A stretch of 64,000 nt of DNA from an uncultured Verrucomicrobiota bacterium (GCA_964389135.1 CAYMDA010000002.1:138800-202799), one strand, 5' to 3'. Shown: positions 52,380 to 64,000, counted from the first letter of the stretch. Notes: generated by a model from the sequence alone, not told the origin. Program-made: numbers and translations.

Positions 52380-53702
52380 TCATGATCCCTGGTCTTTCGG
52401 CGCCTCGGGCTGCGCGCCCTCTTCCGCCTCGTCCTCCACGCGGGGCGCGGGATCCGCTTCCTTTCCGGGTTTCCCGGCCCTTGGCTGCTCTCCCGCGTGA
52501 TAGATGCGCGCGAGTTCGAGGAGAAGCTCCTCGAGGTTCTGGTCGTATGCGTCGGGGTCGAGAGCCTGCTTGCGATCGCGCAGCTTCGAGATCTCGCGCT
52601 CGATCTCGTCACGGCGGGCGCGCGTCTCGGGGGAGAGGGCGAGCTCGAGGGGGCTCCGCACGAGGTGAAACTGGTGGGCGCGGAGTCCGTCCACAGGCGC
52701 GTCGTCGCGGGGTTTTCGCGTGGCGCGAAGGCCGCGGTACCAGTCGGGCGGCGTGCCGAGGCCGTCCCCGGTGTCCTCGATCAGGGGATGTTCCGTCGCG
52801 AGACGGCCCTCCGTCTTGTAGAAGTCGGCCGTGGCATAGGCGGCGCTGAGGAACGCCTCGAGAAGCGAAGTCTGGTTGTCGCCGTCGAGGTCGGACGCCG
52901 GGTTCCCGATCGCGGCGGCGAAGAACTGTCCGAACCGGGTGAAGTTCTGTTCATGACCGCTCCGCGTGGCGGTGATGATGACACGATTGGTGCCTGCGAG
53001 CGCGGGGAGGAACGGAGCGCTCGACGACGCGGTGTTGATGATGGCCAGGGGCCGGGTGAACGGCCGGAGCCACTCGGCAAGGTCGGAAGCGGCGAGGTCG
53101 GGGCCGCGGAGATTGAAGCGCGCGATCTCGCCGTCGAACGTTCCGTGTCCGATGAGGACGATCCACAGCTCCGAATGCCCGTCCCGCGGCTCGGCTTCAA
53201 TGGCGGCGCGCAGGCGGTCGAGGTCCGAGGGCCCGGATTCCGGAGGCTCGCCGGTGCCGGGCTGCGACGAACCCTCGGCCCCGGCGATCTTCCCTTCCTC
53301 CTCGGGCTTCTCCGGCGGGGCGGGGTCGTCGGGCCGGGTCGCCTCTTGGGACTTCGATGACTTCCCGGGCTCGAACGGCGGATCCGCACTCTCCCGGCCG
53401 TCGGCGGGGGAGGCCTCGGGCCCGGCAGGTGAGCGCGGCGCAACGTCGATGTTGGTGGTGCCGATGAGCGTGACCGGGATGCCGGCGGAGCGGCACAACG
53501 CCTCCCATGCGTGCACCTGGGCGACGAACTGGCGTCCGAACTCGGGCTCACCGGGCGCGCCGAGCACGAGCAGCACGCGTGGTCCGTCGCCACCGGCGGC
53601 CGCGTCGGGCGGCCCGCCCGGCGTGGGAGTGTGTCCGTGTCCAGGCCAGAGCCCGGCGAGCAGCGCGGCGCAGAGGGCGGGGAGGATCGGGAGACGACTC
53701 AC
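52380..53702 (-). CDS. Exported protein colinear with clan-CD legumain (C13)-like peptidases, Cys position occupied by Ser
   Basis: I prefer GTG 53702, which gives a GTGA overlap with the upstream stop, over track ATG 53732. It has a signal peptide and an acidic/Pro-rich insert. These are followed by LWIVLIGHGTFDG...LAIINTASSSAPF...VIITATRSGHEQNF...TSLLEAFLSAAYAT. Confidence 0.65.
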   Translation of the reverse strand: MSRLPILPALCAALLAGLWPGHGHTPTPGGPPDAAAGGDGPRVLLVLGAPGEPEFGRQFVAQVHAWEALCRSAGIPVTLIGTTNIDVAPRSPAGPEASPADGRESADPPFEPGKSSKSQEATRPDDPAPPEKPEEEGKIAGAEGSSQPGTGEPPESGPSDLDRLRAAIEAEPRDGHSELWIVLIGHGTFDGEIARFNLRGPDLAASDLAEWLRPFTRPLAIINTASSSAPFLPALAGTNRVIITATRSGHEQNFTRFGQFFAAAIGNPASDLDGDNQTSLLEAFLSAAYATADFYKTEGRLATEHPLIEDTGDGLGTPPDWYRGLRATRKPRDDAPVDGLRAHQFHLVRSPLELALSPETRARRDEIEREISKLRDRKQALDPDAYDQNLEELLLELARIYHAGEQPRAGKPGKEADPAPRVEDEAEEGAQPEAPKDQGS

Positions 53703-63104: not shown

Positions 63105-64000
63105 CGGGTGAGGGGCGGCTTGACCGAATCGAGCAGGCGCTGGATGACGTCCTCGACCCGGACGTTCTCCGCCTCGGCCCGGTAGTTCAGCAGGAGGCGG
63201 TGGCGCAGGGTCGGCGCGGCGAGCGCCCGGATGTCGTCCATCGTCACGTGGGCGCGCCCGCGCAGAAGCGCGCGCGCCTTCGACCCGAGGATGAGGAACT
63301 GGGCGGCGCGCGTGCCCGCGCCCCACGTCACCCATTCGCGGACGAACTCGAAGCCGCCGCCGGCGGAGGGGCGGGAGGCGGCGGCGAGCCGTACGGCGTA
63401 CCGGACGAGCTCCTCGGCCACGGGGACCTGGCGGACGATCTCGTGGAAGCGGAGGACGTCCTCGCCCGTGAACACCGGCTCGATGGGTTCGGCTGCGCGA
63501 CTGGTCGTCCGGAGGATGACCTCGACCTCCTCGTCCTCGGGGAGATAGTCCACGATCACGTTGAACATGAACCGGTCGAGCTGCGCCTCGGGAAGGGGGT
63601 AGGTTCCCTCCATCTCGATCGGGTTCTGCGTCGCGAGCACGAAGAACGGCGGCGTGATCGTGTGGCGCACGCCCGCCGCGGTGACCTGATGCTCCTGCAT
63701 GGCCTCCAGCAGGGCGGACTGCGTCTTCGGCGGGGTGCGGTTGATTTCGTCGGCCAGGATCATGTTGGCGAAGATCGGGCCCGGGATGAAGGTCATGCGC
63801 CGCTCGCCGGCGATCTCCTGGAGAATCTCGGTGCCCGTGATGTCCGCCGGCATGAGGTCCGGCGTGAACTGGATGCGCTGGAACTTCAGGTGGAAGATCT
63901 GCGCGATCGACTTCACGAGGAGCGTCTTGGCGAGGCCCGGCGCGCCCGTGATGAGGCAGTGACCGCCGGCGATGAGGGCGACGAGGATCTGTTCGATCAC
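63101..64000 (-). CDS. MoxR-family AAA+ ATPase (5' end beyond window)
   Basis: Walker A is GAPGLAKT. Also present: RIQFTPDLMPADITGTEI and ILADEINRTPPKTQSALLEAMQE (Walker B / AAA_3). It is truncated at position 64000. Confidence 0.95.
   Translation of the reverse strand: MIEQILVALIAGGHCLITGAPGLAKTLLVKSIAQIFHLKFQRIQFTPDLMPADITGTEILQEIAGERRMTFIPGPIFANMILADEINRTPPKTQSALLEAMQEHQVTAAGVRHTITPPFFVLATQNPIEMEGTYPLPEAQLDRFMFNVIVDYLPEDEEVEVILRTTSRAAEPIEPVFTGEDVLRFHEIVRQVPVAEELVRYAVRLAAASRPSAGGGFEFVREWVTWGAGTRAAQFLILGSKARALLRGRAHVTMDDIRALAAPTLRHRLLLNYRAEAENVRVEDVIQRLLDSVKPPLTR

Follow-up and report, generated by a model that had tools for sequence, protein, structure and literature searches.

What kind of system is encoded by the minus-strand genes at the end of a 64,000-nucleotide stretch of DNA from an uncultured Verrucomicrobiota bacterium (GCA_964389135.1, CAYMDA010000002.1:138800-202799; the whole stretch is hereafter the window)? 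A sequence-only reading had described them as a six-gene envelope cluster with a MoxR, DUF58 and BatA-type core, chained by 4-nt start-stop overlaps. All six open reading frames were recovered within 52380-64000, and are numbered here in order of transcription together with the spacers that matter below:

63101-64000, minus strand: g1, C-terminal 299 aa of a MoxR-type AAA+ ATPase (AAA_3, AAA_lid_2)
62145-63104, minus strand: g2, DUF58 protein, 319 aa, VWA-like (DUF58, VWA_2)
60058-62148, minus strand: g3, BatA-type protein, 696 aa (BatA, TIGR02226, VWA_2)
56183-60061, minus strand: g4, membrane protein, 1292 aa (hydropathy, composition, homolog alignment)
56072-56182: g4-g5 spacer, 111 nt, the sole non-overlapping junction of the cluster
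53699-56071, minus strand: g5, membrane protein, 790 aa (GATase1_like, AF2 model)
52380-53702, minus strand: g6, exported protein, 440 aa (AF2 model, Foldseek, column statistics)
51989-52379: convergent intergenic region and operon end, with downstream genes on the plus strand

Reading the junctions directly from the sequence bore out the proposed gene chain in full, with ATGA overlaps between g1 and g2 (63101-63104), g2 and g3 (62145-62148) and g3 and g4 (60058-60061), the 111-nt gap, and a GTGA overlap between g5 and g6 (53699-53702). Genes called independently on public contigs with the identical sequence gave the five complete products the same lengths; all of these contigs stop inside MoxR, and public records assign no names to these exact proteins. 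Across the window a 4-nt start/stop overlap is possible at 7 of 25 same-strand junctions, 4 of the 5 in the cluster and 3 of the 20 elsewhere (one-sided hypergeometric p ~0.012). Overlaps of this kind are common in high-GC operons, and the proposal that they imply stoichiometric co-translation goes beyond what they show; in five relatives only the DUF58-BatA and BatA-g4 overlaps are kept, and 1-142 nt separate g4 from g5 in every case. Another 4-nt overlap lies just outside the cluster, at 51107-51110. At the g6 stop a further ATGA (52380-52383) opens a frame of only 5 codons, and we place the operon end at g6 because the downstream genes are convergent. Scans of the g4-g5 spacer gave no sigma-70-like promoter and no Rfam match, and Rfam, tRNA and sigma-70 promoter scans across the region were likewise empty; paralogs of the six genes were absent from the rest of the window. 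On the minus strand a terminator-like hairpin occupies 52000-52015, and such sites are not above shuffled expectation.

Synteny across species provided stronger evidence for the cluster than the overlaps. The g5 gene adjoins g6 in 61 of 67 species genomes, and the order is kept further through g4 (47 of 53), g3 (43 of 47) and g2 (39 of 47), so that the co-occurrence across PVC-type genomes anticipated from the sequence was found. The claim of a six-gene unit fared less well: upstream of MoxR, all five relatives examined carry an exported TPR/Peptidase_MA_2 protein and one or more exported DUF4159 proteins, giving the full order TPR/Peptidase_MA_2, DUF4159 protein(s), MoxR, DUF58, g3, g4, g5, g6, with signal peptides on the DUF4159 and TPR proteins as on g6. 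Because the relatives' cluster runs on in this way, with 2-3 more conserved genes beyond the window, the window cuts an 8-9-gene unit, and we tentatively regard the six genes as the last of an operon conserved vertically in Verrucomicrobiota and related PVC bacteria. The outer flanks of the cluster differ among the five relatives.

The first two assignments were secure. g1, cut at the window edge (299 aa vs 349-386 aa in relatives, with ~50-90 N-terminal residues missing), matches AAA_3 at 208 bits (5e-62; cut-off 27) and AAA_lid_2 at 59.4 bits (2.8e-16), and retains an intact Walker A motif (GAPGLAKT, 63923-63946) and Walker B motif (ILADE, 63740-63763), both read from the sequence. Directly downstream, g2 matches DUF58 (PF01882) at 171 bits against a gathering threshold of 23.4 (2.7e-50) and VWA_2 at 7e-10; its homologs span 316-321 aa, consistent with the chosen start. 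Its MIDAS motif, DQSRS (62802-62816), follows the DxSxS pattern found in 38/38 orthologs. No hydrophobic or TM segment was detected in g2, which is therefore predicted to be cytoplasmic.

The third gene had been read as a BatA-N/VWA protein, and three domain models agreed: BatA (PF07584; 61.5 bits vs 25.9, 1e-16), TIGR02226 (74.3 bits vs 23.05, 7.2e-21) and, after the TM hairpin, VWA_2 (34.7 bits vs 27, 3.1e-08). An intact MIDAS motif, DTSAS, sits at 61840-61854, and DxSxS is present in 44/44 orthologs. A region of ~450 aa has no assigned domain, and a search of the PDB found no sequence relative. The membrane segments of g3, on the same strand, are:

61906-62148: N-terminal double-TM domain, with TM segments at aa 3-21 and 56-74
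60100-60156: C-terminal TM segment

These three genes form the recognized core. The Bacteroides BatI operon, Borrelia BB0170-BB0176 and the Leptospira bat genes show the same succession of MoxR, DUF58 and BatA-type membrane VWA proteins; Bat systems also share with the present cluster a VWA domain that faces the periplasm (here by prediction) and a TPR protein in the neighborhood (here upstream, in relatives). We found no equivalents of BatB, BatD or BatE in the window, and g4-g6 gave no BatD, TPR or SH3 matches at E<=10. Unlike the Bat operon, the window instead encodes a helical low-complexity protein (g4), a GATase1-like protein (g5) and a protein with a clan-CD fold (g6), and the relatives add the upstream DUF4159 and TPR/Peptidase_MA_2 genes. 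The name of the BatA_N domain recalls a role in aerotolerance or oxidative stress, with the complex either sensing oxygen or holding the periplasm in a reduced state, as might be expected from a Bacteroides fragilis phenotype (Tang 1999, cited by PMC5700661) and from Riemerella, whose moxR mutants withstand oxidative and heat stress less well (PMC11834572). Against this, no redox motif, CxxC and haem motifs included, occurs in any of the six products (HExxH is likewise absent), g4 has zero cysteines, g4-g6 gave no match to the BatD family, and deletion of all bat genes in Leptospira biflexa produced no phenotype in growth, morphology or oxidative stress (PMC3557215). We consider such a role quite unlikely here.

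The remaining genes extend the core. For g4, the anatomy of TM segments, coiled coil and Gln-Gly tract proposed from the sequence held up, with hydropathy and composition agreeing on the TM, helical and Gln-Gly parts. Three TM segments fall within aa 25-161, and an alignment of 37 homologs, in which M1 is invariant and supports the chosen start, resolved several conserved blocks. From the N terminus, on the same strand, its parts are:

59645-59848: conserved ~70-aa loop between TM2 and TM3, with invariant Glu87
58577-59566: conserved beta-rich region
57047-58576: Q/A/E/R/L-rich helical region
56507-57046: Gly/Gln low-complexity region
56186-56506: conserved C-terminal domain

The suggested link to DUF4175 and TIGR02302 did not survive domain searches. 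DUF4175 (PF13779) remained below threshold, at 19.3 bits vs 27.3 and over profile positions 184-328 of 825 only, and was weak in 16 of the 37 homologs (best E 2.7e-4); an NCBIfam search of the products gave no TIGR02302 match, and no relative of g4 was found in the PDB. What g4 and the DUF4175/TIGR02302 proteins share is a general design of N-terminal TM segments and a long low-complexity tail. There were other alpha-proteobacterial parallels: g3 passes the model built on TIGR02226 proteins, and in Rhizobium leguminosarum cmdA-D, to judge from the layout given in citing papers, a MoxR-DUF58 pair likewise precedes membrane proteins. g6 has no reported alpha-proteobacterial counterpart. Mutation of these Rhizobium genes (RL3499-RL3502) causes envelope and morphology defects, according to the account of Vanderlinde 2011 in PMC5700661, and Tn-seq recorded growth defects for them (PMC5118466, PMC4255674). 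CenR, which regulates envelope and division in Rhodobacter, binds DNA upstream of both a TIGR02302 gene and a MoxR gene (PMC9275681). Because the cmd mutants offer the only clear phenotype, we took envelope integrity as the working function; since the Leptospira deletion was silent, such a role is not universal in the wider family.

For g5, the sequence-only reading of a VWA-like and GATase1-like membrane protein was half sustained. GATase1_like (PF07090, formerly DUF1355) scored 34.5 bits against a cut-off of 27, and among the matches listed it is precomputed on 120/120 g5 homologs; profile matches comprised the structural-genomics GATase1-like proteins 3soz, 2gk3 and 3rht. The VWA-like N-terminal domain was not upheld, with a degenerate motif and an alpha/beta prediction as its only marks. 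The parts of g5, again on the same strand, are:

55886-56050: two N-terminal TM helices
55826-55840: degenerate MIDAS-like motif DNSQG, in a small alpha/beta domain
54287-54862: GATase1-like domain
53714-53773: C-terminal TM segment

Beta-sandwich domains lie on both sides of the GATase1-like domain, and the AF2 model (pLDDT 73.7) gave fold matches to GH42/GH2 and to complement MG-type domains. The conserved elbow nucleophile Cys of a class I glutamine amidotransferase was not found: at position 457 Cys occurs only in the window's protein, the consensus is Ser, and the column is neither invariant nor nearly so. A profile comparison of g5 with g3 for paralogy returned a 44-column match at chance level.

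Resemblance of the g5 model to non-catalytic GH42/GH2 glycosidase domains and MG/Ig-like sandwiches could point to a complex with which PVC bacteria capture or retain periplasmic substrates, such as glycans or peptides, as they take up nutrients. Some relatives carry sulfatases, TonB-dependent receptors or Nramp beside the cluster, and mucin uptake in Akkermansia needs a "periplasmic protein complex" (PMC12418764). Against this, the Akkermansia locus MUL1 is described as Sus-like and MUL2 as type-IV-pilus-like rather than as MoxR/VWA (PMC13174399), the flanking genes differ between relatives, and the fold matches of g5 are to structural domains, not active sites. Domain searches found no carbohydrate-binding or transporter family, and we judge nutrient capture improbable. 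To our knowledge, the mucin-utilisation loci of Akkermansia muciniphila are the only functional genetics for the phylum; a link to them was considered and dropped, with no connection found and no relevant Akkermansia-MoxR pairing in the accessible literature.

The last gene had been called a legumain-like exported protein. Export stood, by virtue of a signal peptide, and the clan-CD fold was supported by the structural model; a Peptidase_C13 sequence match and a conserved nucleophile were both missing. On the same strand, g6 comprises:

53625-53702: signal peptide
53229-53441: P/E/G-rich insert
53142-53150: invariant GHG
53010-53036: degenerate putative nucleophile loop NTASSSAPF
52878-52892: invariant acidic loop DLDGD
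52488-52652: C-terminal helices

Sequence searches of Pfam, NCBIfam and the PDB found no match for g6; Peptidase_C13 was absent even at E<=10 in Pfam, with no C14 or C11 signal either, and a profile search returned only the MARTX CPD, non-significantly (E 0.21). The fold was more informative. Confidence in the AF2 models of g5 and g6 is moderate (overall pLDDT 74-76, lower in the linkers), and in g6 (pLDDT 76) the core is mostly above 85-90. Its best PDB match with Foldseek was a SAVED-CHAT protease (E 5.7e-4, probability >=0.99), followed by Dronc, caspase-4, MALT1 and PIGK (E ~2e-3 to 6e-3, probability >=0.99) and the legumain-type ligase OaAEP1 (E 1.1e-2, probability 0.85); against BFVD, viral caspase and metacaspase models matched at E 2e-5 to 3e-3. 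TM-scores were modest, at 0.3-0.5. By its predicted structure, g6 is a caspase/legumain (clan CD) fold protein. Like the clan CD peptidases that share the caspase-hemoglobinase fold (caspases C14, legumain/GPI8 C13, CHAT, clostripain C11), it places His-Gly after strand beta3 and a small-residue loop after beta4, the usual Cys site. It departs from them in having no sequence-level family membership and no conserved nucleophile position, in additional acidic loops that are invariant (DxDxD..S..E and TEH....D.GDG), in a helical hairpin at the C terminus, and in being exported and operon-linked.

Column statistics bore directly on catalysis. Among 151 family representatives, G185-H186 is invariant (151/151), position 224 is C in 79, T in 30 and G in 19, and position 227 is A in 78, S in 49 and C in 21. 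At syntenic loci position 224 is T in 63, C in 8 and S in 4, and position 227 is A, S or C among same-operon orthologs. The window's protein has Thr224 and Ser227, and the conserved Cys after strand beta4 was not found. Because the putative nucleophile position varies between T, C and S among orthologs in the same operon, g6 is probably a non-catalytic binding module, for which pseudo-enzyme relatives of clan CD, including the caspase-like domain of Raptor, offer a comparison. Catalysis may nonetheless persist in at least part of the family, since roughly half of its 50%-identity clusters carry Cys224 and His186 is invariant.

An active g6 would suit a different scheme, proteolytic maturation, in which g6 would be a clan-CD peptidase, perhaps using Ser or Thr as nucleophile in the window's protein, and would act together with the Peptidase_MA_2 protein on VWA, membrane or envelope substrates, with MoxR and DUF58 controlling access. 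The predicted fold, the invariant G185-H186, the cysteines at 224 or 227, the invariance of S226 and S228 among close relatives and the Peptidase_MA_2 domain in the conserved upstream gene all speak for it. The swapping of residues at both positions between orthologs of the same synteny, the prevalence of Ala at 227 and the missing C13, C14 and C11 signals weigh against it, and we regard this scheme as rather unlikely. A role in phage defense or conflict, on the pattern of the MoxR-VWA "ternary system" and with g6 as caspase-like effector, could draw on the SAVED-CHAT match and on a weak bpMoxR match in g1 (37.7 bits). That proposal is largely refuted and very improbable: AAA_3 scores far above bpMoxR, a PADLOC scan gave no meaningful match, beta-propeller, sensor NTPase and nuclease are all absent, g6 as the supposed effector is exported and has no conserved nucleophile, and the cluster is stably syntenic across the phylum rather than patchy.

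How the preferred reading, an elaborated MoxR-DUF58-BatA envelope module, might operate depends in part on topology. Arg-rich loops and termini, read by the positive-inside rule, put most of g3, g4 and g5 on the periplasmic side, a prediction from hydropathy and charge that agrees with BB0173, a BatA-type protein whose VWA domain was located in the periplasm by experiment (PMC5700661). Pairs of MoxR and VWA proteins are remodelling chaperones that work through MIDAS contacts, as described for NorQD (PMC9976466) and CbbQO (PMC8718961). RavA-ViaA, NorQ-NorD, CbbQ-CbbO and BchI-BchD resemble the cluster in combining a MoxR-class AAA+ ring with an intact-MIDAS VWA protein, and our proposal follows from that pairing. 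Those chaperones each pair with one soluble VWA protein and serve a defined client enzyme, whereas this cluster has one cytoplasmic VWA-like adaptor, 2-3 membrane proteins with periplasmic domains and no client enzyme gene.

We therefore propose that, at the cytoplasmic face, the MoxR ring would use DUF58 as an adaptor to seize a segment of the membrane components that is exposed to the cytoplasm, and to remodel it; the g4 TM2-TM3 loop with its invariant Glu87 is the best candidate for that segment. Remodelling would drive assembly of, or a conformational change in, an inner-membrane-anchored periplasmic scaffold in which the g3 VWA domain, with its MIDAS, is combined with g4, long, helical and of low complexity, and with the multi-domain g5, and so would couple a cytoplasmic ATPase to periplasmic domains. 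This scaffold may recruit g6, DUF4159 and the TPR protein as soluble periplasmic partners, the enzyme-like domains of g5 and g6 serving as binding modules rather than enzymes, and its physiological output would be the maintenance of envelope integrity or architecture. To this reading as a whole, a lineage-specific elaboration of the "Bat" or "cmdA-D" module together with the operon assignment above, we give a probability of roughly 0.45. A bolder version, in which the 8-9-gene unit is a PVC-specific, ATP-primed and periplasm-spanning scaffold, the Gly-Gln-rich g4 sets or stabilises the unusually large periplasm of these bacteria, and g6 is a new clan-CD lineage still in passage from peptidase to pseudo-peptidase adaptor, seems unlikely.

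Collectively, the cluster is a lineage-specific version of the long-known MoxR/DUF58/BatA "aerotolerance" cluster and not a new kind of system. The literature supports the view of its core as a recognized neighborhood with no established biochemical function, and few bacterial neighborhoods that still await a mechanism are as widespread as the MoxR-DUF58-BatA operons. By itself the PVC version adds no new principle; what it adds are phylum-conserved partners, namely g4, g5, g6 with its decaying active site, DUF4159 and the TPR/Peptidase_MA_2 protein, and with them a more complete inventory of components for structural and genetic studies. g6, moreover, defines a large clan-CD-like family of more than 1400 clusters at 50% identity that has no curated entry.

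Between 52380 and 64000, the window (~70% G+C) carries six head-to-tail minus-strand open reading frames with high third-position GC, encoding in operon order a MoxR ATPase (g1), a DUF58 protein (g2), a BatA-type VWA protein (g3), a large membrane protein (g4), a GATase1-like protein (g5) and an exported protein (g6). The five junctions reported by the sequence-only reading all proved exact on reading the sequence:

63101-63104, minus strand, g1/g2 junction, ATGA
62145-62148, minus strand, g2/g3 junction, ATGA
60058-60061, minus strand, g3/g4 junction, ATGA
56072-56182, g4/g5 junction, 111-nt gap
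53699-53702, minus strand, g5/g6 junction, GTGA

Gene calls on sequence-identical public contigs matched for g2 to g6 (319, 696, 1292, 790 and 440 aa), homolog alignments backed the start choices, and the unit ends at 52380 because the next genes past g6 run on the opposite strand. A 4-nt start/stop overlap is possible at 7 of the 25 same-strand junctions within the window, comprising 4/5 in the cluster versus 3/20 elsewhere (hypergeometric p ~0.012), so the cluster is richer in overlaps than its local background. Overlaps of this kind remain commonplace, with one just outside the cluster at 51107-51110. At the other end, g1 is interrupted by the window edge. Four Logan assemblies from independent runs (L001, L002, L084, L085) share an endpoint inside MoxR at about 63590, some 490 nt before DUF58 begins, which suggests an assembly-graph branch, caused for instance by a paralog or co-occurring strain whose AAA_3 core is nearly identical. 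Other genes in the window include:

51107-51988, plus strand, convergent with g6: 293-aa ORF, probably with a signal peptide, unmatched in Pfam
49761-51110, plus strand: PQQ-type beta-propeller gene, coupled to the 293-aa ORF by a GTGA overlap
35204-35851, minus strand: gene resembling, by eye, an ECF-type sigma factor
32269-35211, minus strand: 980-aa protein with Ser/Thr kinase, TM segment and WD40-like repeats; its start overlaps the stop of the sigma-factor-like gene by 8 nt, and it is the window's only G+C dip (56% versus about 69%)
10103-26974: succession of very large exported proteins typical of PVC bacteria, namely a TSP3-repeat protein (1303 aa), a DUF7133 and cytochrome c protein (1239 aa) and a PSCyt1/WD40/PSCyt2/PSD1 protein (1735 aa), which fits an origin of the window in Verrucomicrobiota or Planctomycetota

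Relatives of g6 were sought in one genome per species and turned up in at least 575 genomes, of which the best 80 loci were retrieved. Among loci with enough upstream DNA, the cluster genes keep their order and strand, in line with the co-occurrence that the earlier reading set as a check: g5 lies upstream of g6 in 61/67, g4 in 47/53, g3 in 43/47 and g2 in 39/47, the g2 misses arising partly where the 10-kb flank ended short of the gene. Carriers are mostly Verrucomicrobiota (Opitutaceae, Limisphaerales, Pedosphaera and others), and a few more divergent loci carry a Planctomycetota label. Taxonomy labels of metagenome-assembled genomes in this collection are not to be taken at face value, several being plainly wrong; five loci with clearly verrucomicrobial gene content (L042, L051, L057, L069, L079) go under the names Klebsiella, Akkermansia muciniphila or Bifidobacterium in public records. 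Homologs of g6 detached from g5 occur in six species (L019, L024, L031, L053, L067, L075). Of the two whose surroundings were inspected, one has another MoxR gene about 1 kb away (L075) and the other a second, divergent DUF58-BatA pair at a distance of about 6-8 kb (L067), suggesting a looser association with paralogous MoxR modules.

Upstream of MoxR, all five relatives viewed (L086-L090) carry one DUF4159 gene, in some cases two, and a gene for a TPR and Peptidase_MA_2 protein of 830-905 aa, beyond which the flanks vary; the DUF4159 and TPR products bear signal peptides in the three relatives translated. Because these genes precede MoxR, the conserved unit comprises 8-9 genes: the cluster first described as six genes does contain those six in the window, as the 3′ six of a longer unit, and the operon almost certainly runs past the edge at 64000. 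Within these relatives, 4-nt overlaps recur at DUF58-BatA (5/5) and BatA-g4 (4/5), and g4 and g5 are always separated by a gap.

The g1-g3 core is a bona fide member of the MoxR/DUF58/BatA-TIGR02226 neighbourhood, as proposed from sequence. The g1 product matches AAA_3 (208 bits) plus the AAA lid, with intact Walker A and B motifs; g2 matches DUF58 (171 bits) and VWA_2, with a DQSRS MIDAS and no TM segment; and g3 matches the BatA N-terminal domain (61.5 bits), TIGR02226 (74.3 bits) and VWA_2 (34.7 bits), with a DTSAS MIDAS. The MIDAS DxSxS is retained in 38/38 g2 and 44/44 g3 orthologs. An N-terminal TM hairpin enclosing an Arg-rich loop, and a C-terminal TM helix followed by basic residues, define a membrane layout that g3 shares with g5. 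The g4 product opens with a basic N-terminus and three TM segments, TM2 and TM3 being joined by a conserved loop of ~70 residues (E87, P91 and G95 invariant); after these come a conserved beta-rich region (aa 166-495), 510 presumably helical Q/A/E/R/L-rich residues, 180 non-conserved residues (34% Gly, 22% Gln) and a strongly conserved C-terminal domain ending PIDRDPVP...YYEELG. The positive-inside rule predicts a periplasmic location for the large domains of g3, g4 and g5, in keeping with BB0173, a BatA-type protein whose VWA domain was located in the periplasm by experiment (PMC5700661). The 1292-aa g4 product contains no cysteine, and neither CxxC nor HExxH occurs in any product of the cluster. 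An aerotolerance role is thus weakened by the absence of a redox motif from all products, as well as by a Leptospira deletion without phenotype (PMC3557215).

Outside g1-g3, the cluster genes fall outside the definitions of BatB-E, DUF4175/TIGR02302 and Peptidase_C13. Among the expected domains, AAA_3, DUF58, BatA, VWA and, in g5, GATase1_like (34.5 versus 27 bits) were recovered; g4 stayed below the DUF4175 threshold (19.3 versus 27.3 bits; weak in 16/37 homologs) and had no TIGR02302 match in NCBIfam, and Peptidase_C13 found no support in g6. The g5 model (pLDDT 73.7) begins with two TM helices followed by a small alpha/beta domain; beta-sandwiches then precede and follow the GATase1-like domain, and a TM helix closes the C-terminus. 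Its fold matches are non-catalytic domains of GH42/GH2 galactosidases and complement MG domains, and a profile search returned only structural-genomics GATase1-like proteins. The would-be amidotransferase elbow has no conserved cysteine. The MIDAS-position motif is degenerate (mostly DNSQG), and the 'VWA-like' label once given to the N-terminal domain is tentative.

Searches with g6 gave no match in Pfam (to E<=10), NCBIfam, PADLOC or PDB sequences. Its AlphaFold2 model (34 homologs; pLDDT 76, core mostly above 85-90) retrieved clan-CD proteins at every significant Foldseek rank against the PDB: SAVED-CHAT (E 5.7e-4), Dronc, caspase-4, MALT1, PIGK of GPI transamidase, the legumain-type ligase OaAEP1, metacaspase 9 and a C11 protease. 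A viral model library independently gave caspase and metacaspase-like matches, so 'legumain-like' holds for the fold and no further. Strand 2 and helix 2 of this fold are separated in the window's g6 by an insert of ~70 residues rich in P/E/A/G/S (aa 88-158; 53229-53441), which most homologs lack and which is modelled with pLDDT below 50. A defence system is contradicted by the exported location of the supposed effector, synteny that is stable across the phylum and the lack of a meaningful PADLOC match.

At 50% identity the g6 family spans 2164 clusters (E<=1e-3) or 1432 (E<=1e-10), and all named members are 'hypothetical'. Across 151 family representatives, G185 and H186 are invariant, and S228, D271, D273, D275, E282, E304, D310 and D313 near-invariant. 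Positions 224 (Cys 79, Thr 30, Gly 19) and 227 (Ala 78, Ser 49, Cys 21) lie in the loop after strand beta4, the expected nucleophile site, which reads N-T-A-S-S-S-A-P-F in the window. The invariant His186 and the Cys224 found in half of the wider family lend some weight to an active protease machine. Same-operon orthologs carry Thr (63), Cys (8) or Ser (4) at position 224; such free exchange of the putative Cys-equivalent residue in a single conserved setting speaks for g6 being a pseudo-enzyme with a binding role.

Alongside the established parts, order, conservation, motif status and folds of the cluster, we infer a topology, interactions, cross-membrane coupling and a physiological role. 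In MoxR/VWA pairs such as NorQD, CbbQO and RavA-ViaA, the client is held at an acidic residue by the MIDAS of the VWA adaptor and remodelled by the AAA+ ring. MoxR and DUF58 are the only predicted cytoplasmic proteins of the unit, and the Arg-rich BatA_N loop and g4 TM2-TM3 loop appear to be the only conserved cytoplasmic segments of its membrane components. MoxR-DUF58 would act on one of these loops, assembling or switching a periplasmic scaffold of g3 (with its MIDAS-competent VWA), g4 and g5, which would then bind exported g6, DUF4159 and TPR proteins. The case for a nutrient-capture complex is circumstantial. For the scaffold, we adopt as a possible output the envelope/morphology role of Rhizobium leguminosarum cmdA-D (RL3499-RL3502), the closest system with a phenotype, whose mutants, as cited in PMC5700661, have a defective envelope and abnormal morphology and fail on complex media. 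These genes also show growth defects in Tn-seq (PMC5118466, PMC4255674), and CenR, an envelope/division regulator of Rhodobacter, binds at a TIGR02302 gene and a MoxR gene (PMC9275681).

The literature searched contained no description of this PVC gene set. Although not surprising in principle, the cluster provides a richer parts list for the old unsolved MoxR/DUF58/BatA module, and g6 defines a large uncurated clan-CD-like family.
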